This document shows positions 8,228 through 64,000 of a stretch of DNA of 64,000 nucleotides, in pieces. Position 1 is the stretch's first letter; each line of letters starts with the position of its first letter. The stretch is from Deltaproteobacteria bacterium GWA2_38_16 (GTDB lineage Bacteria; Bdellovibrionota; JACOXK01; 2-02-FULL-40-11): the NCBI GenBank assembly GCA_001797335.1, contig MGPE01000009.1, forward strand, positions 246 to 64,245. Direction: 5' to 3'. The position numbers and the translations under genes were made by a program. The notes beneath the pieces are model-generated. The model was not told the origin of the DNA. It searched no databases and saw only the letters and a list, made by a program, of their open reading frames with translations.

Positions 8228-9280
8228 TTACGCGAGTAATTGATCCACAATGGCTTGGGCGGCGTAGGGATGAGAAAATTGAAGAATGTTTTTTCTCATG
8301 TGGTCAAGTTCTCTAGGATGCTCATAGGCATACTGAATTTCTTTAGCCAATTGCTGGCCATTGAGTTGCCAGTCTAAAAGTACCCGGGTCGCTCCTTTTT
8401 TTTCAAATGCACGAGCATTGGCTTCCTGATGATTATGGGCCGCATAGGGATACGGTACAAAAAGGCATGCTTTTCCTAAGACAGCAAGTTCTGCTACTGA
8501 GGATGCGCCAGCTCGACAAATGACATAATCAGATTGGGCATAAATTCTATCAATGTCGTCAATAAAATCATACACATCTGCTTTCCAATGTTGCTGAAAA
8601 TAAGTGGAAGCTACCCATTTTAAATCTGTTTTTCCGGTTTGATGAATAAGATGAATGCGATTTTTAAGCGTTTCTAAATAGGGGAGTGCTTCTAAGAGCG
8701 CTCGATTTAAGGAATGAGCTCCTTGGCTTCCTCCAAAAATAAAGACAGTAAATTTTTCATGAGGAATACTACTTGTACTCTTAAATTTTCGGACGGGATT
8801 TCCCGTTACAACACTTTTTTGAGAAGGAAAGTAGTGAACGGATTCATCAAAACTAACAAAAATTTTTTGAACCAATAAAGAAAGAATTTTATTGGTTAGC
8901 CCTGGCCTAAAATTTTGTTCTTGAATGGCTCTTTTTTTTCTCAATACCCATGCCATCCATAAAATAGGGAAACTGGCATAGCCTCCCACTCCTAAAATCA
9001 CATCAGGATTAAATTGCCGAATAATAAAAAAAGACTGAATTAAAGAAATAGGAATTAGACAAAGAGTAATAAATTTTTCTAAAGGATTTTTCCCTTTTAA
9101 CCCATCGATAGAAACAAATTTTAAGGGATAATGAAGACTGGGTAATACTTTGGCTTCAATTCCTTTTTTGGTCCCAACAAAAAGAATTTCATGATGGCCA
9201 CGACTTAAAAATTCTTGGGCAATCGCAACTCCTGGGAATAAATGCCCTCCGGTACCACCCCCTGCAATGAGTAACTTCAT
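8228..9280 (-). CDS. murG: Undecaprenyldiphospho-muramoylpentapeptide beta-N-acetylglucosaminyltransferase MurG.
   Basis: MKLLIAGGGTGGHLFPG N-terminus. GT28 fold. dcw context. Confidence 0.93.
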   Translation of the reverse strand: MKLLIAGGGTGGHLFPGVAIAQEFLSRGHHEILFVGTKKGIEAKVLPSLHYPLKFVSIDGLKGKNPLEKFITLCLIPISLIQSFFIIRQFNPDVILGVGGYASFPILWMAWVLRKKRAIQEQNFRPGLTNKILSLLVQKIFVSFDESVHYFPSQKSVVTGNPVRKFKSTSSIPHEKFTVFIFGGSQGAHSLNRALLEALPYLETLKNRIHLIHQTGKTDLKWVASTYFQQHWKADVYDFIDDIDRIYAQSDYVICRAGASSVAELAVLGKACLFVPYPYAAHNHQEANARAFEKKGATRVLLDWQLNGQQLAKEIQYAYEHPRELDHMRKNILQFSHPYAAQAIVDQLLA

Positions 9281-10395
9281 CGATACGTACTCGTTGAAAC
9301 ATCTTGTTGTTGAGCAGAAATATTTAACAATATTCCTACCCCCGCTAAATTACAAATAACAGAAGTACCTCCATAACTTAAAAAAGGAAGCGCTAAACCT
9401 TTTGTTGGAAGAAGCCCCATGACAACAGCAATATTGGTAATGGCTTGAAAACTAATAAGAGAGGTAATCCCCAAGGCTAAATAAGTTCCAAATAAATCGG
9501 GTGCTTTTAAACTAATGCGAATCCCTCGATATAAAAAGAGCACAAAAAGAATAATGACTGCCATGACTCCCATAAAACCCAATTCTTCTCCAATCACCGA
9601 AAAAATAAAATCTGTATGCGCTTCAGGAAGATAAAAAAGTTTTTGGCGCCCATCTCCAAGCCCTAATCCTAAAATATTTCCTGAATAAAATGCTAAAAAA
9701 GATTGAATAATTTGAAATCCCGTATTGGCTGGATCTTCCCAAGGATTTAAAAAAGCTAAAATTCTTTTTTTCCGATAGGGAGTACTCATCATCAGATAAC
9801 ACGCCGTTGGCACTAAAACGATTAGCGCAGAAATAATATATGAAAGACGGGTGCCTGCAGCAAAGAGCATTAAAAAAACAATAAAGGCAATAGAGACCGC
9901 TGTTCCAAAATCCGGTTGAAGAAGAAGAAGCCCCAAAAATAATCCTGTAACGATAAGATGAGGGACAAAACCAATGGCAAATGATTTCATGCTGCCTTCT
10001 TTTTTAGACAGTGAATAAGCCAGATAAAAAATAAGCGCATATTTAGCAAATTCCGATGGTTGAAATCGAAAAAATCCTAAATTTAGCCATCGTCTGGCTC
10101 CTCCTACTCGATGTCCAATGCCAGGAATCAAAAGGGCAATCATTAAGACTAAACAGATAAATAAAAAGGGATAAATGATTTTATAATAAGAATGATAATC
10201 AATGAGTAAAAAAACGATAAGAGCAATAAAGCCTAAAGAAGCAAAGAGAAATTGTTTTTTTAAAAAAAAATAACTGTCATGATAATTTTGGAGGGCATAA
10301 ATAGAACTGGAGCTATAGACCATGACAATACCAGAGAGCACTAAAACAAAAGTAATAACCAACAACCAATAATCAAAAGGAATCTTTCGACTCAT
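9277..10395 (-). CDS. ftsW: Peptidoglycan glycosyltransferase FtsW, SEDS family.
   Basis: About 10 TM helices and SEDS motifs. Sits between murD and murG. Confidence 0.9.
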   Translation of the reverse strand: MSRKIPFDYWLLVITFVLVLSGIVMVYSSSSIYALQNYHDSYFFLKKQFLFASLGFIALIVFLLIDYHSYYKIIYPFLFICLVLMIALLIPGIGHRVGGARRWLNLGFFRFQPSEFAKYALIFYLAYSLSKKEGSMKSFAIGFVPHLIVTGLFLGLLLLQPDFGTAVSIAFIVFLMLFAAGTRLSYIISALIVLVPTACYLMMSTPYRKKRILAFLNPWEDPANTGFQIIQSFLAFYSGNILGLGLGDGRQKLFYLPEAHTDFIFSVIGEELGFMGVMAVIILFVLFLYRGIRISLKAPDLFGTYLALGITSLISFQAITNIAVVMGLLPTKGLALPFLSYGGTSVICNLAGVGILLNISAQQQDVSTSTYR

Positions 10396-11750
10396 TATAA
10401 ATCACGCAAGAGTTCTTTAAACGTATCCCCCCTGTGCTCATAATTTTTAAACATATCGAAACTGGCACATCCTGGGGAAAATAAAATCACATCTCCGGCT
10501 CTAGATTTTTGATACGCCATAAAAATGGCTTCCTCTAACGTTCCCACAATAAAAGTTTCTGTATAATCCCCCACGGCTCGATTAATTTTTTCCTTGGCTT
10601 CCCCTAATAAAATAAGATTTTTTACTTTCTTTTGAACCAAAGGACGCAAGAGCTCAAAGTTGGCGTCTTTGTCTCTGCCTCCCATAATTAAAATTAATGG
10701 TTTATCAAAGCTTTCTAATGATCGAATGACCGAATAGACATTTGTTGCTTTAGAATCATTATAAAAATCCACATAACCTCGAGTTTTGACATATTCTAAC
10801 CGATGCGCCACTCCTTGAAATGAATTTAATGTTTGTTGAATTGATTCTGGAGAACATTTTAAAATTTTAGCAGCTAAAAGAGCAGCCATAAAGTTTTCTT
10901 TATTATGATCCCCTTTTAGTTTTATTTGATCCGTTAGGTATTGCTCATGCCAATCCTTGGTTTTTAAATAAAACCGATTGTCCTTATAATAAATTCCCTC
11001 TTGTCCATGGGCTAAATTCCCTTTAGTAAAATATAAGACTTTAGCTTTGGTTTCTTCGGCATAAGTTCTAATTAAATCATCTTGGGCATTTAAAATTAAA
11101 TAATCTGTCCCTTTTTGATTTTCAAAAATTCTTCCTTTAATTTTTCTATAATTTTCCATAGATCCATGACGATCTAGATGATCAGGCGTTAAATTCAGCA
11201 CAAGAGCAATCTTCGGATGAAAGGTTTCTATGGTTTCTAATTGAAAGCTGCTTACTTCTGAAACCACATATTGATATTCTTCCTTGGTTAATAAAATATT
11301 AGTTAGAGCATTCCCAATATTCCCTCCAACAAATGCTTTTTTCTTTGCATTTTGTAAAAATTGTCCCACCATCATGGTTGTCGTTGTTTTTCCGTTGGTA
11401 CCTGTAATGGCAACAATGGGTTCTTTAATAAAATGATATGCAAATTCAATTTCACTCATGATCTTTTTATTTTTCTTTTTGGCTTGTTCAATGAGAGGAT
11501 TTGTTATCCAAACTCCAGGGCTTACAATAAAAATATCATTAGAAAGTAATGTTTTAATGGGGTGACGTCCCAATTCATATTTTATTTTTTTATACGACCC
11601 TAAGAGTTTTAAATAAGGCTGCAACTCTGTTTTAGTTTTAATATCGGTAACGGTTACCTTAGCCCCACGAGAAGCTAAAAACTGAGCCACCGAAACACCA
11701 CTTCTGGCCAATCCCACAACCACTATTTTTTTTCCTTTTAGTTGGATCAT
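10395..11750 (-). CDS. murD: UDP-N-acetylmuramoylalanine--D-glutamate ligase MurD.
   Basis: KKIVVVGLARSGVSVAQFL N-terminus and GTNGKTTTT P-loop. Confidence 0.93.
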   Translation of the reverse strand: MIQLKGKKIVVVGLARSGVSVAQFLASRGAKVTVTDIKTKTELQPYLKLLGSYKKIKYELGRHPIKTLLSNDIFIVSPGVWITNPLIEQAKKKNKKIMSEIEFAYHFIKEPIVAITGTNGKTTTTMMVGQFLQNAKKKAFVGGNIGNALTNILLTKEEYQYVVSEVSSFQLETIETFHPKIALVLNLTPDHLDRHGSMENYRKIKGRIFENQKGTDYLILNAQDDLIRTYAEETKAKVLYFTKGNLAHGQEGIYYKDNRFYLKTKDWHEQYLTDQIKLKGDHNKENFMAALLAAKILKCSPESIQQTLNSFQGVAHRLEYVKTRGYVDFYNDSKATNVYSVIRSLESFDKPLILIMGGRDKDANFELLRPLVQKKVKNLILLGEAKEKINRAVGDYTETFIVGTLEEAIFMAYQKSRAGDVILFSPGCASFDMFKNYEHRGDTFKELLRDL

Positions 11751-12831: not shown

Positions 12832-14237
12832 TAAGCATCCTTACCAAAAGCTTCGATGAGGGCTACTACCACCTTATCCATACGCATCCCATGAGAGCCT
12901 TTGATTAATACTACTCCTGGATTTTTTATAAGCTCTTGTTTTAATTGAAGAATAAGCTCATTTTGATCTAATGTCCAAAATGATACACCTTTCTTCTTAT
13001 TTTTAACTTCTTTTATAATATACTGAGAAAGCAAACCAAAGGTCAATACATTATCAATGTTATTTTCCTCAATGATTCTACCAATTTCCCGATGATACTC
13101 AATTTCTTTAGCACCCAGCTCCAACATATCCCCCAATACGGCATAGGTTTGTTGATTTTTTGATATTTTTTTAAGCATTTGAATGGCTGCAGTCATTGAA
13201 TTTGGATTTGCATTGTAACTATCATCAATCAGGGTTACTCCCTTTTTTAATCGAATAAAGGTAGAACGACCAGAGGTGGGGATAAAAGATTCCATAGCTT
13301 TTTGAATATGAGAAACACGAATGCCAAAAGATAATGCCACAGTGACAGCCGCCAAAGCATTCATGGCGTTATGTTCTCCTGAAAGTGGAAGATGAAAGGT
13401 AACAGATTCTTTTTTTTGCTTTCCCCACTGACAGGTCATCTCTATTCCTTCTAATCCACACTCTTCTTTAATTTTTCCAAACACATGTGCTTTAGAATCT
13501 TTTAAACTATAGGTTATGACTTCACAGGTTAATTTTTTTTGATAGGGTTTTAAATATGGGTCATCCATATTAATAAATGCTTTTCCTTTTTTGGGGAGTG
13601 CTTCTAAGAGCGCTCCTTTCGCATGGGCAATGGTACTTAAAGATTTCATGGTTAAAAGATGGGCCCTTCCAATATTGGTAATAAGTCCTGCGGTGGGATG
13701 AGCAATTTGACACAGCCTTTTAATTTCAAAGGGAATCGACATCCCCATTTCTAAAAGGGCAAGGGTGTGTGAGGTATTTAACCCAAAAATAGTAAAGGGA
13801 AGCCCAATGAGGTTATTTAAATTTCCCTCGGTTTTTAACACTTTAAATTGAGTTTCCAAAAGATGGGCTATTAAATCCTTGGTGGTTGTTTTTCCATTAG
13901 ATCCGGTAATACCGATGATAGGAATTAAGAATTTTTTTCGATGAAAAAGAGCCAATTGCCCCAATGCTTTTAGGGTATCTGGTACCACAAAAAATATTTT
14001 AGTGGGAAACTCTTTGGGATTATATTTTCCTTTTTGAACAATGGCTGCTTTTACTCCTTTTTCAAAGACTTCTTTTAAAAAAGAATGCCCATCAAATCGT
14101 TCCCCTTGAATAGCAATAAAAATTTGAGAGGGATCAATGGTTTTAGAATGTTGAGAAATACTGTCAAAAGATAAAGCGGTTTTAGGTCCTAAACGTTTGG
14201 CTTTGGTTGCCTTTAGGATTTCTTGAGTTGTAAACAT
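12831..14237 (-). CDS. murF: UDP-MurNAc-tripeptide--D-Ala-D-Ala ligase MurF.
   Basis: [13 protein letters not shown]-loop. Mur ligase middle and C-terminal domains. dcw order. Confidence 0.92.
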
Positions 14238-51824: not shown

Positions 51825-52256
51825 ATGTATACGCAATTTACAACCATTCTTCTCTTCTTAATCATTGGTGCTTGTATGGTTCCTCTTATTCTTTTGGTAG
51901 GCCGATATCTCCGCCCGGCCAATCCGGATCCTAAAAAACTATCTACCTATGAGTGCGGGGAACTTCCTAAAGGAAACTCTTGGGTTCAATTTAATTTACG
52001 ATTTTATGTGATCGCCATTTTATTTTTGATTTTTGATGTTGAAATTGCCTTTATGTTTCCAGTGGCTGTAACATTTCGTCAATGGGTTACTTCTTCTCAA
52101 GCCAAAGGAGTGCTCATTTTTAGTGAAATTATTCTTTTTATTGCTATTTTACTAATTGGATTTGTCTACGCCTGGACAAAAGGCGATTTTGAATGGATTA
52201 AGGGTTTACAAAAAAAACAAATAGATCCCCGCTTTCGCGGGGATGACTTAAAATGA
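51825..52256 (+). CDS. nuoA: NADH-quinone oxidoreductase subunit A (ND3).
   Basis: YECGELPKG...LRFYVIAILFLIFDVEIAFMFP signature. The C-terminal residues DPRFRGDDLK are encoded by a REP-like element. Confidence 0.9.
   Translation: MYTQFTTILLFLIIGACMVPLILLVGRYLRPANPDPKKLSTYECGELPKGNSWVQFNLRFYVIAILFLIFDVEIAFMFPVAVTFRQWVTSSQAKGVLIFSEIILFIAILLIGFVYAWTKGDFEWIKGLQKKQIDPRFRGDDLK
52223..52247 (+). repeat. REP-like hairpin, copy C: AGATCCCCGCTTTCGCGGGGATGAC. It overlaps the nuoA 3' end and lies 5 nt before the nuoH ATG.
   Basis: Stem CCCCGC/GCGGGG with TTTC loop. Same family as the copies at 34564, 34682 and 19089. Confidence 0.6.
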
Positions 52257-53359
52257 CATCACTTCCTGAATTTTTAAAAGAATTATTTGAATCTTGGCCT
52301 CTCCTAGGAATCTTACCGGTTTGGTTTTATAGTATTGTGGCTATTTTTGGTCTTCTTTTTCTCTTTTTATTTCCCTTTGCCGGAGTGGCTGTTTACGTTG
52401 AACGAAAAATTGCAGGAGATATTCAAGCCCGCATTGGTCCCAATGTGGTTGGCCCCTATGGAATCTTGCAGTGGATTGCCGATGCATTAAAACTTCTTCT
52501 TAAAGAAGATATTATTCCTACCAACGCTGATAAAAAACTTTTTATTCTTTCTCCCATGCTTATTTTTATAAGTGGTGCCTGTGCCTATGCCGTTATTCCT
52601 TTTGCTGATAATGTTATTTTGGCCAATCTCAATATTGGTATCTTTTATCTCCTGGCTATTACCTCTATGGTTACTTTGGGACTTATCTTAGGAGGATGGG
52701 CATCCAATAACAAATGGTCTCTCTTGGGGGGACTTCGAGCCGCTGCCCAGGTAGTTTCTTATGAAATCCCTGTTGCTTTAAGTATTTTAACCGTTGTTTT
52801 GGTCACGGGAACTTTGGACATGGCTCAAATTGTAAAAATGCAAGGCCCTTTTTACTGGAATATTTTTCATAACCCCTTCTTATTTATTTCAGCCTGTATC
52901 TATTATATAGCAGCTCTGGCAGAAGCTAATCGAACCCCTTTTGATATCCCAGAAGCAGATTCGGAACTGGTTTCAGGCTATAATACTGAATATAGTGGCA
53001 TGCGATTTGCCATCTTTTTTCTCATTGAATACGCTGAGTGCTTTATTATTTGTGCGGTTGCAACCACTCTCTTTTTAGGAGGGTGGCATCTTCCCTTTTT
53101 TGATCTTTCCTCCTTAACCTTGGGACTTCGAATTCCTCTTCAAATCATGGTCTTTATGACAAAATCTATTCTACTACTCCTTACGATGATGTGGATTCGT
53201 TGGACATTACCTCGGTATCGGGTGGATCAGCTGATGAAACTTTGTTGGGAAGTGTTTGTTCCCTTTTCTTTTGCCTGTCTTATTGGAACTGCCTTTTGGA
53301 TGGTGCTATTTAAAGGAAAAGGAATTCCTGAACTTATTTTGGGATTATTTGTATCATGA
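52253..53359 (+). CDS. nuoH: NADH-quinone oxidoreductase subunit H (ND1).
   Basis: VERKIAGDIQARIGPNVVGPYGILQ and the conserved TM loops of NuoH. Confidence 0.93.
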   Translation: MTSLPEFLKELFESWPLLGILPVWFYSIVAIFGLLFLFLFPFAGVAVYVERKIAGDIQARIGPNVVGPYGILQWIADALKLLLKEDIIPTNADKKLFILSPMLIFISGACAYAVIPFADNVILANLNIGIFYLLAITSMVTLGLILGGWASNNKWSLLGGLRAAAQVVSYEIPVALSILTVVLVTGTLDMAQIVKMQGPFYWNIFHNPFLFISACIYYIAALAEANRTPFDIPEADSELVSGYNTEYSGMRFAIFFLIEYAECFIICAVATTLFLGGWHLPFFDLSSLTLGLRIPLQIMVFMTKSILLLLTMMWIRWTLPRYRVDQLMKLCWEVFVPFSFACLIGTAFWMVLFKGKGIPELILGLFVS

Positions 53360-53850
53360 CTTCATACGATAGTTTATTTTATGTATTTGCCGCTGTGACT
53401 ATCATTCCAGCCATTGTCACTGTTTTTCATCCCAATATCCTCTATGCTGCCTTGTCTTTATTTGGTTCTTTTTTTGGCGTTGCAGGAATTTATGTACTTT
53501 TAGGAGCAGATTTTATCGCTGCCACTCAAGTTTTAATTTATGTAGGGGGCATTCTAGTTCTTATTTTATTTGCCGTTATGCTTTCTAAAAATATTTATGG
53601 AATGACCTTTCAAGATGAAAAAAAGAAAAAAATACTCCCTACCCTCTTTGGTATATTGCTCTTGGGATTTCTCATTAAACTCATTACAACGGTTCACTGG
53701 AACACAACTCTTTCAGAAGAAGGTCCCCTTCCCACGACTGCAGCTTTAGGAAATTTACTATTAACAGAGTATCTACTGCCATTTGAACTGGCTTCTGTTT
53801 TATTGTTAGCGGCTTTAATTGGAGCCATCATTTTAGCGAGGAGCAAATGA
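53356..53850 (+). CDS. nuoJ: NADH-quinone oxidoreductase subunit J (ND6).
   Basis: Size, TM pattern and position between nuoH and nuoK. The nuoI gene normally found between nuoH and nuoJ is absent. Confidence 0.85.
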   Translation: MTSYDSLFYVFAAVTIIPAIVTVFHPNILYAALSLFGSFFGVAGIYVLLGADFIAATQVLIYVGGILVLILFAVMLSKNIYGMTFQDEKKKKILPTLFGILLLGFLIKLITTVHWNTTLSEEGPLPTTAALGNLLLTEYLLPFELASVLLLAALIGAIILARSK

Positions 53851-54155
53851 CCGTCGAACTACACCACTACTTAATTTTATCTTCTATCTTGTTTGTACTT
53901 GGTATTATTGGGATTATTTCTCGGAAAAATTCTATTGGAATTTTGATGGGCATTGAACTCGTGATGAATGCCTGTGGAATTAACTTTGTGGCCTTTTCAA
54001 AATACATTGCTTCTGACTTTTCAGGACAAATTTTTGCCTTATTCATTTTTGTCATTGCCGCTGCAGAAGTGGTCGTAGCATTGGCCATTGTGCTAAGAAT
54101 TTACCAAAATAAAGCAACCATCGATATTGAAGAGGTTAAAGATTTAAAATGCTAG
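53847..54155 (+). CDS. nuoK: NADH-quinone oxidoreductase subunit K (ND4L).
   Basis: About 100 aa, three TM helices, with GIELVMNA-type motif. Confidence 0.9.
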   Translation: MTVELHHYLILSSILFVLGIIGIISRKNSIGILMGIELVMNACGINFVAFSKYIASDFSGQIFALFIFVIAAAEVVVALAIVLRIYQNKATIDIEEVKDLKC

Positions 54156-56143
54156 ATCCTTTTATTGTAAAACTTTTCCCAACTTTAGACCCTATGCTTG
54201 TTATTATTTCGGCCATTCTTTTTTCTCCTTTGGTAGGTTTTGTAATTCAATTTTTTATGGGGGAAAAGCTCTTTCGAAAAGGCGATTGGGTATCTCTAGG
54301 CGCTATTTTTATTTCTTGGGTTTTAACTCTCTTTTTATTTTCAGATTTTGTACACTCCCAAAACGCCCATTTTAAGTGGGTCATGTCTTGGCCATGGATT
54401 GCTTTACCCAGTTTTTCTTTAGGAATGGGAATCCTTTTAGACAGCACTACTATTCTCATGCTTTTGGTCATTACAACGGTAAGCTTTCTCGTTCATCTTT
54501 ATTCCACCGGATACATGCAGGGGGATCCCAGATATAGTCGTTTTTTTGCTTATCTTTCTTTCTTTTCTTTTTCGATGATTGGGCTTGTGCTTTCAGATAA
54601 TCTTTTTGCTCTTTATGTTTTCTGGGAATTGGTTGGACTTTCTTCTTATCTTCTCATTGGTTTTTGGTTTGAAAAACCTTCTGCTGCCAATGCCAGTAAA
54701 AAAGCATTTATTGTCACGCGCGTTGGGGATGTAGGAATGTTTATTGGAATTTTAATTATCTTTTTTCAAACCAATGGACTTTTAAAATTTGAAGATATTT
54801 TTTCTTTTCTTTCCAAAAGTTCTTTTAACGGTGAATTTTTGGGTCTTTCTCTTCTAACGTTGGCGGGACTATGCATTTTTATGGGTGCTGTTGGAAAATC
54901 GGCCCAATTTCCCCTTCACATTTGGCTCCCAGATGCCATGGAAGGCCCCACGCCTGTTTCTGCTCTGATTCATGCGGCTACAATGGTGGCAGCAGGAGTT
55001 TATCTGGTTACCCGCATGTTTCCTTTTTTTACCCCAGAAGCTTTAACCTGCATTGCCTATGTAGGCGCCTTTACCGCTATTTTTTCAGCTACGATGGCCT
55101 TAACCCATAACGATATTAAAAAAGTATTGGCTTATTCGACGGTCAGTCAGCTGGGATATATGATGATGGGCCTAGGTGTTGGGGCAACCATAGCCGGATT
55201 TTTTCATTTGGTCACACATGCTGCTTTTAAAGCATGCCTCTTTTTATGTTCAGGAAGTGTTATTCATGCACTTCACACGCAGGATTTAAGAGAAATGGGG
55301 GGACTTCGCAAAAAAATGCCCATTACATTTGTCACCATGCTCATTGCTACATTGGCCATTTCAGGCGTTCCTCTTTTTTCTGGCTTTGTTAGTAAAGACA
55401 TGATTTTGGGAGGAACACTTTCTTTTGTCTCCAATCATCCAAATCACTTTTTAATCCCCATTTTTGGATTTTCCGCTGCGGCTTTAACGGCCTTTTACAT
55501 GTTTAGACTTATTTTTATGACTTTCTTTGGCACCGCTCGCGACTCCAAAAAATTTGAACATGCACATGAAAGCCCTTTTAATATGACGCTTCCTTTAATT
55601 ATTTTAAGTCTTTCATCTTTTGCCATTGTATTTACGCCCCTTCATTTTTGGATTGAACAAGAAGAAATACCTGAAAACATACATCATCTGGCCACCGTTC
55701 TTTCTCTTTTTGTGGCTGGAAGTGGCATTTTACTTTCATATCTTATGTATATGAAAAAAGTTTTAAACCCTGACACTCTGGCTCAACGTTTTAAATATAT
55801 CTATAACACCCTCATCCACCTTTATTGGATTGATGAACTCTATGAATGGGCTATTTTAAATAATGTCGTTCGTCTGAATAATCTTTTAGCTCATTTTGAT
55901 AACCGAGTTATTGATCAAGTGATGGTGGATGGCTGGGCTCCCGTGACCATTCAAACATCAAGAGGTTCTGGCAATTTTGATAATCGAGTTATTGATGAGC
56001 TCTTAGTCGATGGGACAGGACAAATGGTGGGAGCTTCAGGGAAACAAACGGTAAAAATTCAAACTGGGAAAGTGCAACAATATATTTTGGTAGGACTAGG
56101 GTCTGTCTGTGTATTATTAATTCTACTAACGCTTATTTTATGA
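54149..56143 (+). CDS. nuoL: NADH-quinone oxidoreductase subunit L (ND5), with a long C-terminal extension.
   Basis: WLPDAMEGPTPVSALIHAATMVAAGVYL antiporter-like core. 664 aa. C-terminal tandem FDNRVID-x4-VDG motifs. Confidence 0.93.
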   Translation: MLDPFIVKLFPTLDPMLVIISAILFSPLVGFVIQFFMGEKLFRKGDWVSLGAIFISWVLTLFLFSDFVHSQNAHFKWVMSWPWIALPSFSLGMGILLDSTTILMLLVITTVSFLVHLYSTGYMQGDPRYSRFFAYLSFFSFSMIGLVLSDNLFALYVFWELVGLSSYLLIGFWFEKPSAANASKKAFIVTRVGDVGMFIGILIIFFQTNGLLKFEDIFSFLSKSSFNGEFLGLSLLTLAGLCIFMGAVGKSAQFPLHIWLPDAMEGPTPVSALIHAATMVAAGVYLVTRMFPFFTPEALTCIAYVGAFTAIFSATMALTHNDIKKVLAYSTVSQLGYMMMGLGVGATIAGFFHLVTHAAFKACLFLCSGSVIHALHTQDLREMGGLRKKMPITFVTMLIATLAISGVPLFSGFVSKDMILGGTLSFVSNHPNHFLIPIFGFSAAALTAFYMFRLIFMTFFGTARDSKKFEHAHESPFNMTLPLIILSLSSFAIVFTPLHFWIEQEEIPENIHHLATVLSLFVAGSGILLSYLMYMKKVLNPDTLAQRFKYIYNTLIHLYWIDELYEWAILNNVVRLNNLLAHFDNRVIDQVMVDGWAPVTIQTSRGSGNFDNRVIDELLVDGTGQMVGASGKQTVKIQTGKVQQYILVGLGSVCVLLILLTLIL

Positions 56144-56153
56144 GGAGAGATAT

Positions 56154-57707
56154 ATGACATTGCCAAATATCATCATGGATCATTTACTGACAGGAATCGT
56201 CTTTTTACCTGTTATAGGAATATTAATTATCTTACTGCTCCCCAGCAATCGTCCTTCTCTCATCCGCTGGACATCAGCAGCATTCACGTTTCTCCCCTTA
56301 TGCATCGCTGCAGAACTTTTTTTACTTTTTAATCGCAATGAAGCTGGCTTTCAATTTGTAGAAAAATTTTCTTGGATCCCCACTTTTAATATCCATTATT
56401 ATATCGGAACCGATGGTCTTTCCATCACCATGCTTTTATTGACAGCACTTCTTTCTTTCCTTTGTGTTTTTGCCTCGTGGGGTATTACTCAAGGTGTAAA
56501 AGGCTACTTTACAATGTTTCTTCTCTTAGAAGCCGGCATGATGGGTGTGTTTGTTGCCCTTGATTTTTTCCTTTTTTATATTTTTTGGGAACTCATGCTT
56601 TTGCCTATGTATTTTCTCATTGGCATTTGGGGAGGTCCTAAAAAAGAATATGCTGCTATTAAATTCTTTTTATATACCCTCTTTGGTTCTGTCTTAATGC
56701 TCGTTGTCATGTTAGCCTTTTATTTTTACTCTGATCCGCATACGTTTGATTTAGTAGAACTGGCTAGGCCTGGAATCTTAAAAATAAAAGATTTAACCAT
56801 TTTTGGATTGCCTATCACCATTGCTCTTTTTAAAAAGATTTTATTTATTCTTCTTTTTATTGGCTTTGCGATTAAAGTCCCTATTTTCCCTTTTCATACA
56901 TGGTTACCGCTGGCCCACGTAGAAGCTCCTACTCCGATTTCAGTAATTCTTGCCGGAGTGCTTTTAAAAATGGGTGCTTATGGACTGCTTCGAATTAGTT
57001 TTCCTATTTTACCCCAAGAAACCTATTGGTTTTCTTATGCCTTGGCCATTTTAGGACTTATTAATATTGTTTATGGTGCTTTTTGTGCGATGGCTCAAAT
57101 TACGCTTCCTCAAGAAAAAGGAGGCAATGATTGGAAAAAACTCATTGCCTATTCTTCCATTAACCACATGGGCTACGTGCTTTTAGGAATGGCCGCCTTT
57201 ACCGTTGAAGGAATCAATGGGGCTGTCTTTCAAATGTTTAACCACGGCATTACTACCGGCATGCTCTTTCTATTAGTAGGCGTCATTTACGATCGTGTTC
57301 ACCATAGACGCATTGATGGATTTGGTGGGCTTCGAGTTAAAGCTCCTATTTACACATCGATTGTTGCTCTGGCTTTTTTTGCTTCTTTAGGACTTCCTGG
57401 CCTTTCAAGTTTTATTTCAGAAGCGTTGGTCTTTTTAGGATCTTTTAAAGTCTATCCATCTCTCACCATTCTAGCCACGATTGGTATTCTCATTAATGCT
57501 GCTTTTTTCCTGTGGGTTTTACAAAAAATATTCTTAGGGCCTCTGAATACTACGTATAAAGATCTCTCTGATATTAATTTTAGAGAGCTCGTTACCCTAG
57601 TTCCTTTAGCCGTATTGGTCATTTTTTTAGGGGTTTTTCCGATGCCTATTTTAGATTTAATGAAAATAACTTTAGATAAACTTTTAACCGTTATTCAATC
57701 TGTGTAA
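56154..57707 (+). CDS. nuoM: NADH-quinone oxidoreductase subunit M (ND4).
   Basis: Antiporter-like core (WLPLAHVEAPTPISVILAGVLLKMGAYG). Confidence 0.93.
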   Translation: MTLPNIIMDHLLTGIVFLPVIGILIILLLPSNRPSLIRWTSAAFTFLPLCIAAELFLLFNRNEAGFQFVEKFSWIPTFNIHYYIGTDGLSITMLLLTALLSFLCVFASWGITQGVKGYFTMFLLLEAGMMGVFVALDFFLFYIFWELMLLPMYFLIGIWGGPKKEYAAIKFFLYTLFGSVLMLVVMLAFYFYSDPHTFDLVELARPGILKIKDLTIFGLPITIALFKKILFILLFIGFAIKVPIFPFHTWLPLAHVEAPTPISVILAGVLLKMGAYGLLRISFPILPQETYWFSYALAILGLINIVYGAFCAMAQITLPQEKGGNDWKKLIAYSSINHMGYVLLGMAAFTVEGINGAVFQMFNHGITTGMLFLLVGVIYDRVHHRRIDGFGGLRVKAPIYTSIVALAFFASLGLPGLSSFISEALVFLGSFKVYPSLTILATIGILINAAFFLWVLQKIFLGPLNTTYKDLSDINFRELVTLVPLAVLVIFLGVFPMPILDLMKITLDKLLTVIQSV

Positions 57708-57710
57708 ATA

Positions 57711-59186
57711 ATGAGTAATTTAACCTCTAGTTTAATGCTCTATTCTAGCGAAATCATCTTAACGTTGACGCTCTCTTTTGTCTTAATCATCCACATGATT
57801 TCTCGGAATAATTTTCTGACATTTTTAACGGCTCTGGTGGGACTTGCTGCTGCAGCTCTTGCAGTGGGAACGTTATATAGCTATGCCCCTCAATTTTATT
57901 TTTCAAATCACTTAAGCCACGATCCTTTTAGTCTCTTTTTTAAACTCTTTTTCATTGTTGCTACTTTTTTTACGTTTCTTTTTAGCTACCGTTCCTATGA
58001 AATTGACTCCAATAGAACCGCTGAATTTTATCTTCTCACCCTTTCTGTTACCCTAGGCATGTGCACGCTGGTTTCTTCTTTAAATCTACTCACTCTTTAT
58101 CTTTCCTTAGAACTCGTAAGTATTGTTTCTTATGCCCTGGCTGGATTTAGAAAAGAACACCCCGCATCTAATGAAGCAGCCATTAAATATCTTTTATATG
58201 GAGCGTTTGCATCGGGGACCATGCTTTTTGGGATGTCTTTATTATATGGACTCACAGGCTCTTTAAATATTTATTCTATTAATGCTACCTTATCGACCGC
58301 CTTTTTAGATCCTTTGGTTTTATATTCAGTACTTTTGATGATTCTTTTTGGATTTGGATTTAAAATTTCCATGGCTCCCTTCCATATGTGGGCTCCGGAT
58401 GTGTATCATGGAGCGCCCACCCCAACGGCCGCTTTTTTTACCGTAGCCCCCAAGGCTGCCGGATTTGCTGTCTTCATTCGCTTTTTTTATACCGTTTTTG
58501 CCAACATGGGAACTACTCCCAATCAGTGGGATGAACTGACTAATCTCAATTGGGCACTTATTCTTTCTATTTTATCTGCCATTACGATGACCATTGGAAA
58601 TTTAAGTGCTCTTCGGCAAAAAAATGCCAAACGAATGTTGGCGTATTCCAGTATTGCACACGCAGGATATATGCTCATGGGATTTATTGTTTTAAATAAA
58701 CAAGGGCTTTCTTCCGTCTTATTTTATCTAGCTATTTATTTTTTCATGAATTTTGGTGCTTTTTTTGCCGTAGGATTAGCTTCTAACAAATTTAAAAATG
58801 AAGAAATTTCTAGTTTTAAAGGATTGGGGTGGACATCTCCCTTATTGGGAGTTTCTTTGGCCATATTTTTATTTTCTTTAACAGGCATTCCGCCTTTTGG
58901 CGGATTTATTGGGAAAGTATATTTATTTTCAGCACTGGTTCATAAAGAGTTATATTGGCTACTCCTTATTGCTATTTTAAATACCGTCATCTCGCTTTAT
59001 TACTATACGTATTTGGTCCGAGAAATGTTTTTACAAAAATCTAAGGATTCCGAAAGTGTAGCGCTTACCCCCCTTCATACAATAGCGCTACTTCTTTTGG
59101 TTATTCCAACCCTTGTCTTTGGCATTTACTGGGAACCTTTATTAGCCTTTGTCTCCCACTCACTTCAATTTATCGTCACTCCGTAA
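57711..59186 (+). CDS. nuoN: NADH-quinone oxidoreductase subunit N (ND2).
   Basis: MAPFHMWAPDVYHGAPTPTAAFF and AYSSIAHAGYML motifs. Confidence 0.92.
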   Translation: MSNLTSSLMLYSSEIILTLTLSFVLIIHMISRNNFLTFLTALVGLAAAALAVGTLYSYAPQFYFSNHLSHDPFSLFFKLFFIVATFFTFLFSYRSYEIDSNRTAEFYLLTLSVTLGMCTLVSSLNLLTLYLSLELVSIVSYALAGFRKEHPASNEAAIKYLLYGAFASGTMLFGMSLLYGLTGSLNIYSINATLSTAFLDPLVLYSVLLMILFGFGFKISMAPFHMWAPDVYHGAPTPTAAFFTVAPKAAGFAVFIRFFYTVFANMGTTPNQWDELTNLNWALILSILSAITMTIGNLSALRQKNAKRMLAYSSIAHAGYMLMGFIVLNKQGLSSVLFYLAIYFFMNFGAFFAVGLASNKFKNEEISSFKGLGWTSPLLGVSLAIFLFSLTGIPPFGGFIGKVYLFSALVHKELYWLLLIAILNTVISLYYYTYLVREMFLQKSKDSESVALTPLHTIALLLLVIPTLVFGIYWEPLLAFVSHSLQFIVTP

Positions 59187-59203
59187 AATTATATCCCCTT
59201 TAG

Positions 59204-59236
59204 GTGTTTCAAAAGCTTGAAACACTTTGTTATTTT
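59204..59236 (+). terminator. Rho-independent terminator of the nuo operon: 9-bp perfect stem GTGTTTCAA/TTGAAACAC, loop AAGC, then TTTGTTATTTT.
   Basis: Read directly, 18 nt after the nuoN stop. Confidence 0.65.
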
Positions 59237-59282
59237 ACCCTATTGAGTTTCTGAAACTTCCCTGTTATAGCCTTTCCCAACC

Positions 59283-60053
59283 ATGAATGACCAAAGAGCT
59301 ATACAAAGTGTACTTCAGTCGAAACTGACAGAGTTTCAATTAAAAAACACTGCCTTTTCACTTCGTGCTTTTTCAAATAGGCTTGGAATGAGCCCAGGGG
59401 CCGTTTCTCAAATTTTGAATGGAAAAAGATTTGTTTCTAAAAAGATAGCCCAAAAAATTTGTGATAAACTTCTCTTAGATCCTCAAGAAAAATCAGAGAT
59501 TGTTGGGCTTTTTCCTGAACAAAAAAAAGAACTCTTAAATAATACTGCTTTAGAACCCAATTATCTTCAACTTCAGTCAGACCAGTTTCGAGTGATTTCA
59601 GATTGGTATTATTTGGCCATTCTCTCTTTAATGAAAACCCGAGGGTTTAAACAAAGCCCACAATGGATATCTAAACGTCTTGGCATATCCCAGAAAGAAG
59701 CCAAAGAGGCCATGACCCGATTAAAAAGATTGGGGCTCATTGAGAAAGATAAAAAGGGTGGGTTAAAGCGTTCCGTTCCACGTTATCGAACCTCTGATGA
59801 CACAAAAGATGTATCTGTACAAAAATCTCATTTTCAAAGCTTGGAACTCGCACAAAAGTCATTAACAACGGATCCCGTTCAAGAAAGAGATTTTACTTCA
59901 ATCACCATGGCCATTAATTCTAAGAAATTGGCTGAAGCAAAAGTTTTGATTCGAAAATTTCAAGATGAATTAAGTGGTCTTTTAGAAGATTCCACCCCTG
60001 ATCAAGTGTATCGATTATGTGTTCAACTTTTTCCATTAAGTCAAGGGAGGTAA
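59283..60053 (+). CDS. Helix-turn-helix DNA-binding protein. From memory it resembles the TIGR02147-type family (N-terminal XRE-like HTH plus a second winged-helix-like segment).
   Basis: LRAFSNRLGMSPGAVSQILNGKR HTH, and DWYYLAILSLMKTRGFKQSPQWISKRLGIS. Its stop codon lies inside the RBS of the first paralog gene. Confidence 0.6.
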   Translation: MNDQRAIQSVLQSKLTEFQLKNTAFSLRAFSNRLGMSPGAVSQILNGKRFVSKKIAQKICDKLLLDPQEKSEIVGLFPEQKKELLNNTALEPNYLQLQSDQFRVISDWYYLAILSLMKTRGFKQSPQWISKRLGISQKEAKEAMTRLKRLGLIEKDKKGGLKRSVPRYRTSDDTKDVSVQKSHFQSLELAQKSLTTDPVQERDFTSITMAINSKKLAEAKVLIRKFQDELSGLLEDSTPDQVYRLCVQLFPLSQGR

Positions 60054-60058
60054 ATAAT

Positions 60059-61690
60059 ATGCGTAACTTATTCTATATCGGACTTTTAATGGCAGGGCTC
60101 ATCTCACCCACTTTTGCTGGAGATAAAGTAGGAAATGGGGGAGATGTCGTGGTTTGCCGGAATACAGTAAATGAAGTTACTTCGATTGAAGCCTTAGATA
60201 TTTATGAAGGGAGAGTGCGCTGGACTATCGAACTTGATTTGGGAGATGCTTCTTTGTCTCCTCTTCAAAAAGTGGAATTGGCTCTTTCAAGGTTAGGGCG
60301 AATTTCGTCTATCCGAGCAGAGAGGTATTTAGAAAAAGCCAAGCAGTTTGACGCTAACGCTCTCTTTTTAGATAATACCGAGCTTCCAGATATTTCTGAT
60401 TCTAACCATTTAATTTTTCCAAAAGGCTGTAAAGTCGAACAAATTATTGTCCAACGAACTCCTCATTTTTCAGATGATAGACGATATTTGGTCAGTAATG
60501 ATCTTTGGAAACAACTAGACTCTACAAATAAAGCTGCTCTTATACTTCATGAAATTATTTATGAAGAAGCATTAGAATTTGGGCATCAAGATTCTGTCCC
60601 TACCCGTTATTTTAATGCTCATCTCATGTCCCATCGATTTGAAACTTTTACGCCAAAAGAAATGGCTGCTTTTTTTAAGACAATTGATTTTAAGAAATTT
60701 GATTATCAAGGTTTTATTTATGCTTCTTCTAGACTTGAATGCCATCACCAATTCATCAAAGAAGAGATGTGGCCCATTCAATTTTTTGATAATGGCATGG
60801 TTGTTAAAAGTGGCTGTATTTTAAGTGGCTCTATCGAAGTTCAAGGACAAAAAGCAAATGTGGCAGGATTTATTTCTTTTCATGATAACGGACAGCCTCA
60901 TTCTTTCATGGCCAGTTCTCCCGATCCACAAAAACCACTCATGGTCAGAATTAATGAAAAAGATTATGCCCCATATGATGGGGGAGAAATCCAGCTCTAT
61001 CAAGATAGTAGTTTGAAAGCGGTCGTTTTGGCCTTAGATGATAAAAATGGATTAGTTTTTGAATCCACCAATTATTCTTTGAATACAGTCGCAGTCGATA
61101 ATCCATGGGGAAAGGGGAGTCGTCCCTTAACTGTAATCCTTTATCCGAATGGGGGCATAAGTAGCCTGATAGCCATAGAACCAGATAGGCATTATCCCAA
61201 ACAAATTAAAGGATGGGGAATGAGTCGAGGTCAAAGGATATATATTAGATCAAATCGTGTTGATTTTTTTTCAGATGAAACTGTAAAAATGGCAACCATC
61301 TCTTATGAAACACCTTTAACTTTTACGATTGATGAGCATCAGTTGAAATTTGCAGGGTATGTAGAGCTCTACGAAACAGGGGAATTAAAAAGTGGTATTT
61401 TCATTGCAGAACCTCAGAAATCGTTCTGGGGAAATACGTACTTTGAAAAAATAGCGATTCCTTTTTTGGTCGGAGATCAAAAAACTAAATTTTGGCTAAA
61501 AAAAGAAACAAATGATTGGTTTGAAGGAAGATATATTCACTTTTATCCTGGATATAAAGTTAAACAAGGAATGTTAGCGCAGTCCGCAACATTTAAAACT
61601 ACGGATGGGCAAACAATCGTTGTTCAAGAAGGACAGATAGTATCTTTAGATGAACAAGGACGATTATTACAGGGGCAAAGTGAATACTAA
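60059..61690 (+). CDS. Secreted paralog 1 of a tandem family. Conserved signal peptide plus GDKVGNGGD leader, with a C-terminal region of MORN_2/YwqK-like repeats. The ORF track begins at an upstream Met at 60017.
   Basis: RBS GGGAGG 8 nt upstream. MRNLFYIGLLMAGLISPTFA|GDKVGNGGDVVVCR. Repeated Y/F-x-NG-x-(L/V)KSG motifs (FFDNGMVVKSG, FHDNGQPHSF, LYPNGGISS, LYETGELKSG). Confidence 0.75.
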   Translation: MRNLFYIGLLMAGLISPTFAGDKVGNGGDVVVCRNTVNEVTSIEALDIYEGRVRWTIELDLGDASLSPLQKVELALSRLGRISSIRAERYLEKAKQFDANALFLDNTELPDISDSNHLIFPKGCKVEQIIVQRTPHFSDDRRYLVSNDLWKQLDSTNKAALILHEIIYEEALEFGHQDSVPTRYFNAHLMSHRFETFTPKEMAAFFKTIDFKKFDYQGFIYASSRLECHHQFIKEEMWPIQFFDNGMVVKSGCILSGSIEVQGQKANVAGFISFHDNGQPHSFMASSPDPQKPLMVRINEKDYAPYDGGEIQLYQDSSLKAVVLALDDKNGLVFESTNYSLNTVAVDNPWGKGSRPLTVILYPNGGISSLIAIEPDRHYPKQIKGWGMSRGQRIYIRSNRVDFFSDETVKMATISYETPLTFTIDEHQLKFAGYVELYETGELKSGIFIAEPQKSFWGNTYFEKIAIPFLVGDQKTKFWLKKETNDWFEGRYIHFYPGYKVKQGMLAQSATFKTTDGQTIVVQEGQIVSLDEQGRLLQGQSEY

Positions 61691-61717
61691 TTATTCTTTG
61701 CAAAGGAGGTAAATAAT

Positions 61718-62926
61718 ATGCGTAACTTATTCTATAGTGGACTTTTAATAATGAGCCTGCTCTCACCCACTTTTGCTGGAGATAAAGTAGGCAATGGGGG
61801 AGGCGCTGTTGTTTGTAGAAGTTTGACTGATAACAGCGTTTTTTCTTCAGAATTACTTGATTTATGGGAAGGTAAAGAATTCCTTGATCTTTCCATACCA
61901 GAATCATCAAAAGAGGTGAATGAACAGCATTTGTCTGCATTAGAGGTAATAAGAAATGTAGGAAAACCAGAGAAAAAGTTGTCTGACAAAAATCTTCTTA
62001 ATTCTATAAGTGATTTCACAGAAAGAATTTATTTAGATATTTTAGAGGCCACTCGTCATATCGATAATTCAACAAGCGATCTGCCTTTGGATATGGGTAT
62101 CAATTTAACCAATGATATTTATGCAGTCTACTATAAGAAGACATTACGAAGTATGAGCACGCCGAACCTTCGATGTGGATTAGAGATGGTGGCATATTAT
62201 AGGCCAGATGGCACTTTAGAGAGAGACACTGAAATCTATGACCATTTTACGTTAACCAGTAAAGCCGCTTTAAAAACACACGAATCTATTTACAAGGCAG
62301 CCCGAGAATTTTCAACCTTTGCTCATGGAAAGAAAAAAGTTTTAAATGATTCAAGAGACGTTAGAGAACTTGTTGCGTATTTATATTCTCAAGAACCAGA
62401 CCAGGGTAAAATTTTAAATAGTCTTCACGCTCTCTTCGGTTATCGCCCAACTGAGCAGAAATATGTTGATGTTAAACCCGATGATCATCAAGAAACAAAT
62501 CTCAGGATCTCAATTCTTACATCCAAAAGTCTCGAAAAAGGGGGATTTATAGATAGTTTTATAGATCGAGAAAGTTTAAGGGGAGTCCAACTCGGTTACA
62601 ATGCTTATTTATATGATGAAACACGCTCAAATCCTGTTAAAATTTCTGGGGCAACATTAGATTCAAAACAGAATCCAAAAGAACGCTTTTTGTTGTCTCA
62701 AAACATACAGGACTTACGTCATAAAATAATCTATATTGAGGGTTTTTTCTCACCTCGTCGTAATGCAACTGAGTACCTGAGAGAAGACTCGATAGAAATG
62801 ACCGTTGCGGTAAAACTTGAATTATTGGGTAACAATGATGTCGTTTTGGCGGAGAGGTCTGGCACATTAATCTTTTCAACAAATACGCTTGAACCCTTTG
62901 TCATGCTTTTCTGTGAACTATATTGA
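61718..62926 (+). CDS. Secreted paralog 2. Same leader as paralog 1, divergent body.
   Basis: AAGGAGGTAAATAATATGCGTAACTTATTCTATA 5' region near-identical to paralogs 1 and 3. MRNLFYSGLLIMSLLSPTFAGDKVGNGGGAVVCR. Shared internal motif AALKTHESIYKAAREF versus AALILHEIIYEEALEF in paralog 1. Confidence 0.75.
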   Translation: MRNLFYSGLLIMSLLSPTFAGDKVGNGGGAVVCRSLTDNSVFSSELLDLWEGKEFLDLSIPESSKEVNEQHLSALEVIRNVGKPEKKLSDKNLLNSISDFTERIYLDILEATRHIDNSTSDLPLDMGINLTNDIYAVYYKKTLRSMSTPNLRCGLEMVAYYRPDGTLERDTEIYDHFTLTSKAALKTHESIYKAAREFSTFAHGKKKVLNDSRDVRELVAYLYSQEPDQGKILNSLHALFGYRPTEQKYVDVKPDDHQETNLRISILTSKSLEKGGFIDSFIDRESLRGVQLGYNAYLYDETRSNPVKISGATLDSKQNPKERFLLSQNIQDLRHKIIYIEGFFSPRRNATEYLREDSIEMTVAVKLELLGNNDVVLAERSGTLIFSTNTLEPFVMLFCELY

Positions 62927-62942
62927 AGAGGAGGTAAATAAT

Positions 62943-64000
62943 ATGCGTAACTTATTTTATATAGGACTTTTAATAATGGGCCTCATCTCACCCACCTTTG
63001 CGGGAGATAAAGTGGGAAATGGGGGGGATGGCACGGCTTTGGAATTTAAGCATATAGCAATGGATTTGTATGATTACTTTAAAACTCTCCCTCCAGCTAT
63101 GTTACCTGAAAAAATGCAAGATATAGACCTTCTTGTATTTAAAAACTTTATAGATAATCTCAATGTTACTTCCAAGGCGCAATTTGATCCACCCCATGAA
63201 AATTTCACTGCTATGAATTTTAGTTACCCTCATGAAACAGATTTGGAAGGAGGACAAATTATTATCAATAGAAGTCGGTGGAGTGAAGAAACTCAAAAGA
63301 AAGCTGTTGTTTTGCATGAATTATTGGGATTGATGGGGAAAGATAGAAAATACGACGTGTCTCATGAGTTTGTAAATACCATCGTAGATAATGAAGCAGC
63401 CTTTTCTCAGATCTATGATCTTATACAGGGGATAAGATCAGCACACGGATTTTTTGAAACGGCCATGAGTTATTTTCAAAGTGTGCATAGCGGTAAAGCA
63501 TCGGAACTTACTCATCAATTGATGTGGACACATCCAAACAAAACGGCCATGAGTGAAATGCCAAAGAGAGAGGCCTTAGAAATGATCGAGCTATTTCAAG
63601 GTGGAGCTAGAGAGTATAAAACTTTTTATGAACAGTCATTTCAATTACAACATAGTATTTTGAGTTTGGCTTTAACCCTAATAGATTTAGAGGTATATCC
63701 AGAAATTCAAGCTGCTAAAAAAGCGTTGATTTGGGATGAAACTGTTGTTCCTGACCTTTTTTCTAGATGGGATAATGGAATGCAACTATACCTTAATCAA
63801 TTTAACAATACAGTCAGTGATACCGTTATGATTGATGTCAGACAATATACCCATGATCTTTGGGAATGGGTTCACTTGATCCATGAAATAAGAAATAGAG
63901 TGATGTCTTATTCAAAGCTTGTGACCGAGTTATATAATAGCCTTCCTGTTATAGAAAGTCGTCTTTATAAAACTGCTATTTTAAGTGGAGAATATCCAAA
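62943..64000 (+). CDS. Secreted paralog 3. Partial: it continues beyond the window end.
   Basis: Same RBS and leader (MRNLFYIGLLIMGLISPTFAGDKVGNGGDG). Open frame verified by eye to position 64000. Contains AVVLHELLGLMG. Not in the ORF track because no stop falls within the window. Confidence 0.7.
   Translation, partial: MRNLFYIGLLIMGLISPTFAGDKVGNGGDGTALEFKHIAMDLYDYFKTLPPAMLPEKMQDIDLLVFKNFIDNLNVTSKAQFDPPHENFTAMNFSYPHETDLEGGQIIINRSRWSEETQKKAVVLHELLGLMGKDRKYDVSHEFVNTIVDNEAAFSQIYDLIQGIRSAHGFFETAMSYFQSVHSGKASELTHQLMWTHPNKTAMSEMPKREALEMIELFQGGAREYKTFYEQSFQLQHSILSLALTLIDLEVYPEIQAAKKALIWDETVVPDLFSRWDNGMQLYLNQFNNTVSDTVMIDVRQYTHDLWEWVHLIHEIRNRVMSYSKLVTELYNSLPVIESRLYKTAILSGEYP

Follow-up and report, generated by a model that had tools for sequence, protein, structure and literature searches.

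A near-identical 101-nt start module on four divergent genes for predicted secreted proteins in the groundwater bacterium GWA2_38_16

Clustered genes in which a near-identical 5' region and signal peptide are followed by divergent mature parts are found in Mycoplasma, as the vsp genes of M. bovis and the vlp genes of M. hyorhinis. Their products are repeat-rich lipoproteins, and their expression is switched by site-specific inversion or promoter slippage. In the erp genes of Borrelia burgdorferi, a conserved upstream region, a leader polypeptide, and the first mature residues, which act as a sorting sequence, are joined to open reading frame (ORF) remainders of many origins, and these genes often recombine (PMC10016077). 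A similar arrangement is described here for the uncultured groundwater bacterium GWA2_38_16, the genome of which is an incomplete metagenome bin. The window, that is, the whole stretch of DNA that was analysed, comprises 64,000 nucleotides (nt) of contig MGPE01000009.1 (positions 246–64,245); the longer contig was read as locus L001, the sequence of which agrees with the window in every base of the 4.7 kb that they share. L001 contains exactly four genes, P1–P4, that bear the same 101-nt leader module behind one regulator, and P4 lies just past the window end. Judged from comparison of the sequences, gene conversion of this 5' module, and not recent duplication, very probably explains the shared leader.

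The locus would be one transcription unit in which a DUF4423/TIGR02147 regulator is followed by four proteins predicted to be exported by the Sec system. The copies of the module would be kept uniform by gene conversion, the non-reciprocal form of homologous recombination, probably with help from selection for a translation-start and export signal shared by all four genes, and the bodies of the genes would evolve independently of the leader. Because a direct repeat stands at the head of every gene, the module would be a likely junction for gene gain, loss, or swap behind the regulator. The neighbouring regulator would set the expression of P1 and P2, which are predicted to be enzyme-like. The combined account, with conversion, an operon, a zincin-like protein family, and control by the regulator, is probable. 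The following features are concerned (lengths of proteins are given in amino acids, aa).

59206–59257, no strand: two GTTTC-Nx-GAAAC palindromes (59206–59223 and 59247–59257) in the 96 bp that separate nuoN from the regulator gene, a candidate operator.
59283–60053, + strand: transcription regulator, 256 aa, with an N-terminal XRE-type helix-turn-helix (HTH) and a C-terminal DUF4423 domain (TIGR02147 family), assigned by Pfam and NCBIfam.
60046–60146, + strand: leader module copy 1, with AGGAGGTAAATAAT, ATG, a 20-residue signal peptide, and the mature N-terminus GDKVGNGG; reference copy of the direct-repeat family D1.
60059–61690, + strand: P1, 543 aa, with a signal peptide, a GG-Cys-HExxY N-domain of ~170 aa (HEIIY), and a C-terminal part of ~350 aa that is rich in beta-strands.
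61705–61805, + strand: leader module copy 2, 87% identical to copy 1 over 101 nt.
61718–62926, + strand: P2, 402 aa, with a signal peptide, a GG-Cys-HExxY N-domain (HESIY), and a C-terminal domain of ~170 aa without assignment.
62930–63030, + strand: leader module copy 3, 89% identical to copy 1, with a run of seven G at 63021–63027.
62943–64000, + strand: P3, 476 aa in full, cut by the window end (full gene at 11226–12656 of L001).
Beyond the window, in L001, + strand: P4, 430 aa, with leader copy 4 (98% identical to copy 1).

The 101-nt direct repeats form a single family of four copies (100, 87, 89, and 98% identity to copy 1), and a repeat search of the locus gave nothing else of note. The module consists of a strong Shine-Dalgarno sequence, an 8-nt spacer, ATG, the signal peptide of 20 residues, and the first 8–9 residues of the mature protein (GDKVGNGG). 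The 64 kb contain three occurrences of the 23-nt core for GDKVGNGG, and 100 shuffles contain none. The alignment of three gene starts shows an almost invariant block from AGGAGGTAAATAATATG onward. When identity is counted in register in bins of 15 nt, 13–15 positions per bin agree between −15 and about +75, 10–13 in the bin from +75 to +89, and 1–10, mostly 2–5, thereafter. The expected codon identity was computed from the window's own codon usage. Among those of the first 29 codons that encode the same degenerate amino acid in the leaders compared, 16–25 are identical in sequence, and 9.5–12 are expected to be so (z = 2.8–5.7). The alignable part of the P1 and P2 bodies has no synonymous excess, with 19 of 50 codons identical versus 23 expected. 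An earlier reading of this DNA, made from the letters alone (the sequence-only reading), had described the leader as conserved at synonymous positions, and this description holds for the leader and not for the P1–P2 body. Similarity confined to amino acids, which had been named beforehand as the outcome that would count against nucleotide-level homogenisation, was not what was found, because codon identity in the leader exceeds expectation.

Within its first segment, the module also has a TAA in each of two reading frames (window 60046–60061; L001 12645–12660). The regulator stops on the first of these and P3 on the second. Therefore, an upstream gene can end inside the ribosome-binding site of the next gene, which makes the module a handy portable junction. 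The leader peptide, assessed by inspection only, reads MRN / LFYIGLLMAGLISP / TFA-GD, in agreement with the type I Sec pattern and without a lipobox Cys. A double-glycine leader of the bacteriocin type was considered as well and was ruled out by the hydrophobic core and the TFA-G site for signal peptidase I, together with a locus that contains no transporter. The run of seven G in the P3 leader falls in its GNGG codons and is a possible slippage site; the other copies have at most five G at this point, and the length of the run is constant among the assemblies compared.

The bodies behind the leader have a history of their own. Without its leader, the N-domain of P1 gives P0140 (49%) and P0149 (42%) as best matches, and P2 is not among its 153 matches at E ≤ 1e-3. 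The leaderless N-domain of P2 gives P0002 (64%) and P0008 (41%), and P1 is not among its 146 matches at the same threshold; P0002 is the ortholog of P2, with 55% identity overall. P1 and P2 are thus old, separate branches of one family, because these domains match proteins of other organisms and not each other. The leaders group differently. Among the paralogs, 86–98 of 101 nt are identical (87 between P1 and P2, 98 between P1 and P4), whereas all four leaders share 79–81 of 101 nt with the leader of the P2 ortholog in L007, and right after the leader the sequence of this ortholog turns identical to that of P2. All four array leaders have SPTFAG, whereas those of relatives have SSSLAG or SSGFAG. 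The leaders therefore cluster by genome and not by orthology, which points to concerted evolution.

Related loci differ in what stands behind the regulator. It is P1 in the window, the P2 ortholog and then an unrelated 183-aa protein in L007, and a third body, P0159 (356 aa), in L031/L032, where the leader has that lineage's version, LLVFGLISSGFAG. The L007 regulator is about 83% identical to the window regulator when read by eye; in the L031/L032 regulator, the last ~170 nt are near-identical to those of L007, and the upstream part is different. L007 and L031/L032 may have arisen by allelic replacement, or they may come from two loci in the same genome. In both cases, the different bodies behind the regulator mark the junction between its 3' end and the leader as the recombining unit. 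A metagenome scan for leader DNA gave one extra copy only, a variant of P0159. A weaker form of the window pattern is seen in L008 (GCA_964507905.1), where a DUF4423 regulator is followed by three genes with D-E-V-G-N-G-G, the leaders of which are 59–72% identical at the nucleotide level, compared with 39–47% in the bodies. The sequence-only reading had proposed gene conversion or cassette-style diversification, and it gains from four sides: the synonymous excess in the leader only, the age of the bodies, the grouping of leaders by genome, and the varied bodies at one junction.

The block could instead have been fixed by direct selection on its nucleotides, as a messenger RNA structure, a site for a small RNA or a regulator, or a translation-initiation element, so that recombination would be unnecessary. 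Such selection and conversion can act together, and the block does contain a strong Shine-Dalgarno sequence with a fixed spacer; moreover, the hairpin CAUCUC.CCC/GGG.GAGAUG is found in the predicted folds of P1, P3, and P4. However, the arm of this hairpin is not retained in P2 or the L007 ortholog, and the fold energies of the leaders are no better than those of shuffles (z = -0.84, 0.58, -0.23, 0.58). Rfam gives no match for the leader, and the candidate operator palindromes are absent from it. Selection alone would also leave the presence of SPTFAG in all four leaders, as opposed to SSSLAG or SSGFAG in the relatives, unexplained. It is therefore an unlikely substitute for conversion.

It is very unlikely that the genes arose by a very recent tandem duplication, after which diversifying selection drove the bodies apart at an extreme rate and the leader stayed unchanged for lack of time. 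P1 and P2 are each far closer to proteins of other organisms than to each other, the architecture of P1 recurs in distant metagenomes beside its own regulator, the P1–P2 body has no synonymous similarity, and P4 has no relatives in 5.8 billion proteins beyond leader matches. These points outweigh the tandem arrangement of the genes and the fast evolution of secreted proteins here, as seen in P2 (55% identical to its ortholog) compared with the regulator (~83% identical to its L007 counterpart).

The sequence-only reading had also considered a polymorphic effector family. A locus of polymorphic toxins or effectors would combine an unchanging N-terminal part for trafficking with variable C-terminal toxins and with immunity genes. 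A tandem array with a constant N-terminus and variable remainders, in a lineage related to predatory bacteria, has some resemblance to this plan. Nevertheless, the constant part consists of a Sec signal peptide and 8–9 residues only, and the gaps of 27, 16, and 1 nt that separate the genes contain no small ORFs of the immunity type. The Pfam and NCBIfam searches gave no toxin, Rhs, contact-dependent inhibition (CDI), or type VI or type VII secretion system (T6SS, T7SS) marker, and most family loci contain a single gene with a regulator. This explanation is highly improbable, and the effector alternative was given up.

Six assemblies of the organism were compared, and the array is identical in them except for one 11-nt deletion and one assembly with runs of N, both at the P1 leader. 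In L005, 11 nt are absent near 8341–8351 (TATGCGTAACT), and the start codon of P1 is thereby removed. In L006, runs of N occur near 8309–8354 and 8998–9035, at the P1 leader and within P1. Both are probably assembly trouble at the repeat, and it is possible that the L005 deletion is a real knockout variant. The notion that the repeat itself is an artefact, a collapsed or chimeric repeat in a metagenome bin, draws on these two defects exactly at the P1 leader and on contigs of relatives that end near the leader (L007, 2.9 kb; L031, 1.4 kb), but it has practically no probability, because the arrangement is base-identical across 7.3 kb of the array in four independent assemblies (ENA and three NCBI/ENA bins), the exact P2 sequence is present on 22 public contigs, from assemblies such as GCA_001798085.1, and the differences among the four leader copies sit at fixed positions.

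Gene conversion remains the preferred explanation. The intergenic gaps in the order regulator, P1, P2, P3, P4 are 5, 27, 16, and 1 nt, so that P4 starts 1 nt beyond the P3 stop. The gene starts at 60059, 61718, and 62943 and the gaps of 27 and 16 nt that the sequence-only reading had given were recovered at the same coordinates. The same is true of the HTH regulator directly upstream with its stop in the first ribosome-binding site region, where TAA (60051–60053) directly follows GGAGG (60046–60050). Its expectation that the array continues past the window with more copies was right as to one further copy, P4; the array is not open-ended and has four copies in all. Downstream of P4 in L001, a secreted ORF of 147 aa with a different signal peptide, a GT87 glycosyltransferase gene on the opposite strand, and a second nuoA-H-J-K-L-M-N cluster are found. 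Small secreted ORFs stand behind both arrays, at 14056–14499 of L001 (147 aa) and 1719–2270 of L007 (183 aa); their signal peptides are unrelated, and they have no match in Pfam or NCBIfam and none to the family described below. The regulator, the array, and the GT87 gene are flanked by two diverged membrane-arm-only nuoA-H-J-K-L-M-N clusters (window 51825–59186; L001 15958–21209), which share 37–45% amino-acid identity. An integron or shufflon cassette array was ruled out, since the neighbours are nuo genes and the GT87 glycosyltransferase gene and there are no flanking inverted repeats.

P1 and P2 belong to a large family without a name. P1–P4 have no match in Pfam or NCBIfam, as the sequence-only reading had anticipated when it assigned them to no named family, and the same is true of mainstream family members, which the source records label 'hypothetical protein'. 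The family profile has no match among PDB sequences. Word-indexed searches gave about a dozen relatives, which define a domain of ~170 aa directly behind the signal peptide. In an exhaustive HMMER profile search, 5,856 cluster representatives passed E ≤ 1e-3, and the stricter threshold of E ≤ 1e-10 left 4,254, so that the family, counted as clusters at 50% identity, has at least 5,856. The 21 loci from species-representative genomes are all from Bdellovibrionota (Bdellovibrio, Pseudobdellovibrionaceae, Bacteriovorax, Silvanigrella). When 151 diverse members are compared, 12 positions turn out to be invariant or 99% conserved, among them G8, G9, C14, D28, E31, D94, C105, H140, E141, S156, and R160; E108, Y144, and R148 are conserved in 95–96%, with the Tyr of HExxY in 95%. 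The GG motif has a median precursor position of 29.5. The family hidden Markov model (HMM; profile A4, 170 positions) matches P1 at E = 2e-54 and P2 at E = 3e-60, each with 13 of the 14 listed positions, scores that partly reflect the inclusion of both proteins among the 13 sequences from which A4 was built. The independent member L8b reaches E = 3e-45, also with 13 of 14. The closest relatives of P1, P0140 (49%) and P0149 (42%), have the same architecture as P1. The conserved Cys pair is probably a disulfide. The domain looks like an enzyme, and we infer a secreted or periplasmic, hydrolase-like protein. In P0039 of Bacteriovoracaceae (L035, 8001–9290), two family domains are fused, and the second has no GG and has HD in place of HE.

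The regulator is a clear member of the DUF4423/TIGR02147 group. It matches Pfam DUF4423 (PF14394) at E = 5.7e-51 with 173 bits (cut-off 30), HTH_3 with 27 bits (cut-off 23), and NCBIfam TIGR02147 with 128.4 bits (cut-off 50). A DUF4423 gene is the immediate neighbour, divergent or co-directional, in 24 of 26 distinct family loci. In three further loci (P0140, P0149, and the two-domain P0039), the regulator lies upstream with a 4-nt overlap, which brings the total to 27 of 29. The two loci without an adjacent DUF4423 gene are both cut by contig ends, and seven adjacent regulators that were run against Pfam were all above the cut-off. A family gene and a DUF4423 regulator are a conserved two-gene module, and tight pairing with one neighbour is the usual layout of local transcription factors. 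The pairing of the two families appears to be undescribed; no literature was found on the function or targets of DUF4423/TIGR02147 or on the GG-Cys-HExxY family. In the only publication found to mention DUF4423, one such regulator, Bd3700, is given as up-regulated when the cells grow in prey (PMC12546842). In L009 (11351–20987), the regulator–target pair adjoins a conjugative type IV secretion cluster (TrbC, TraC/VirB4, CagX, TrbI, TraG).

The two palindromes in front of the regulator gene are a candidate operator. GTTTC-Nx-GAAAC has only three matches in the 64-kb window, where about one is expected, and two of them lie in the gap between nuoN and the regulator gene. The first overlaps a terminator-like hairpin after nuoN (L001 7485–7510, window 59202–59227). 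In other loci, the regulator is preceded by different palindromes, for example ATGTAGATTTATAATCTACAT in L009 and L010. No terminator-like sites were found on the + strand within the array, and a single transcript from the regulator through P4 may be assumed for this reason.

With a variant HExxY motif, the N-domain is somewhat more probably zincin-like than of another fold, as far as structure prediction goes. The AlphaFold2 (AF2) model of the P1 N-domain has a mean predicted local distance difference test (pLDDT) score of 86 and a predicted template modelling (pTM) score of 0.86. It has no strong structural neighbour, and zincin-like metallopeptidases lead every list, weakly. Foldseek gives selecase as the top hit in PDB and, in BFVD, 'Metallopeptidase domain protein' (probability 0.97, E = 0.03), followed by SprT-like proteins; P0019 has a sub-threshold Pfam PhageMetallopep match on the HE helix. 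The zincins (selecase, jannalysin, and abylysin; SprT/Spartan; M35 aspzincins such as deuterolysin) are the best, though weak, matches in three libraries. As in zincins, a beta-sheet is predicted to be followed by a long helix with H-E and then by a second helix. Unlike zincins, the core family has HExxY (Tyr in 95%), no second His, and its own invariant set of GG, C, D, E, D, C, S, and R. Among P1–P4, the canonical HExxH is present only in P4 (HESLH), compared with HEIIY in P1, HESIY in P2, and HELLG in P3. A lipoprotein without the Cys pair stands beside a second DUF4423 regulator in L015 (8175–9227, − strand; 9356–10174, + strand). It starts with GGVDGGGG, has a canonical HELSH, and gives sub-threshold Peptidase_M48 and DUF3810 matches. 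A protease–repressor pair of the ImmA/ImmR type was ruled out, since the zincin-like protein is exported, whereas the regulator is cytoplasmic.

P3 and P4 have a less certain place. With filters off, only AGDKVGNGG of either protein aligns to the family HMM, and a forced alignment gives 2 of the 14 listed positions, no better than a shuffled sequence. By hhalign, P4 is matched at the HE helix (31 columns) with a probability of 53.8%, and the probability for P3 is 5%; BLAST likewise leaves homology of P3 and P4 to the family unproven. P3 has the same leader, no Cys pair, and the motif KKAVVLHELLG, and its body has no detectable relatives; P4 has no homologues among the 5.8 billion proteins except via the leader. 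The likeness of P3 (GQIIINRSRWSEETQKKAVVLHELL) and P4 (LP..D..C..E..HESLH..R) to the family pattern, seen by eye, was not counted as evidence. Homology is thus unproven, because only the leader and the HE motif are in common. The sequence-only reading had taken three genes for paralogs, and of these P1 and P2 are demonstrable paralogs, whereas P3 fails the family HMM and the forced alignment. Of its motif islands, HE is present in all four proteins and VVCR only in P1 and P2. MORN_2/YwqK-like repeats, which it had seen in P1, were not confirmed, with no PF07661 match at E ≤ 1 (cut-off 29.6 bits). Below threshold, the P1-like homologues P0149 and P0140 score 15.5 bits (E = 0.02) and 11.8 bits against MORN_2, and P1 has hxhY/FxNGxh repeats by eye, so that a relationship of its C-terminal part to MORN_2 is possible. 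The structure model of this part, built from a three-sequence alignment, has a pLDDT of 31 and is unusable.

Several points weigh against the combined account. No recombinant or intermediate was seen in the strain comparison, where the array is identical across assemblies and gives no population signal. L007 and L031 are short contigs, possibly from two loci of one genome and not allelic replacements, and further leader copies could be checked only among proteins already in public databases. P3 and P4 may be paralogs that have diverged to an extreme degree, or else unrelated bodies that took up the module. The zincin assignment is weak: the HExxH by which zincin metallopeptidases are recognised is absent from P1, P2, and P3, and no standard zinc site is predicted for the core family, because the motif has one His only.

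A bolder proposal is that the 101-nt block is a portable expression-and-export head with which this lineage plugs unrelated or rapidly renewed ORFs into a secretion operon run by DUF4423, with GG as a sorting or maturation tag. The head would contain stops in two frames, a Shine-Dalgarno sequence, a start codon, a signal peptide, and the mature-end tag D-x-V-G-N-G-G. The invariant Gly-Gly tag would be read by dedicated machinery and would not be part of the enzyme fold; its counterpart in the Erp proteins of Borrelia would be their sorting sequence of 5 residues. Some observations hint at such a tag. The GG motif is 100% conserved and always just behind the signal peptide, it is retained on bodies without other family features (P3, P4, L8c, and the L015 lipoprotein), and it is missing in the internal second domain copy of the fused P0039. 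The proposal is nevertheless doubtful. If the Gly-Gly tag were a sorting signal, one would expect in these bacteria a step of export or maturation that has so far escaped notice.

The locus offers a clean chromosomal, non-lipoprotein case of a start module that would be maintained by conversion on unrelated-looking genes for secreted proteins. It also exposes a family of thousands of clusters, unnamed in Pfam and NCBIfam and centred on predatory bacteria, with a residue set that resembles an active site. Because of the near-obligate pairing, this family is the first concrete candidate target for DUF4423/TIGR02147 regulators, and the pair is tractable in Bdellovibrio.

The sharing of a start module is already known in kind from Erp and is not a new principle. 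Unlike Mycoplasma vsp and vlp, the array described here has no recombinase, inverted repeats, or phase-variable promoter. The closest analogue is provided by the erp genes (ospE/ospF/elp, with their 'upstream homology box'). No Erp-like role in host interaction is known for P1–P4. Erp proteins are lipoproteins encoded on multicopy prophage plasmids, whereas the present array is a chromosomal tandem operon without a lipobox. The shared block of erp includes the promoter and operator, whereas the block here begins at the ribosome-binding site. The proteins are unrelated, and so are the regulators, which are BpaB, BpuR, and EbfC in erp and a DUF4423 protein here. The anatomy is nevertheless the same in both systems: a start module with, in the present case, the first 8–9 mature residues is followed by divergent bodies.

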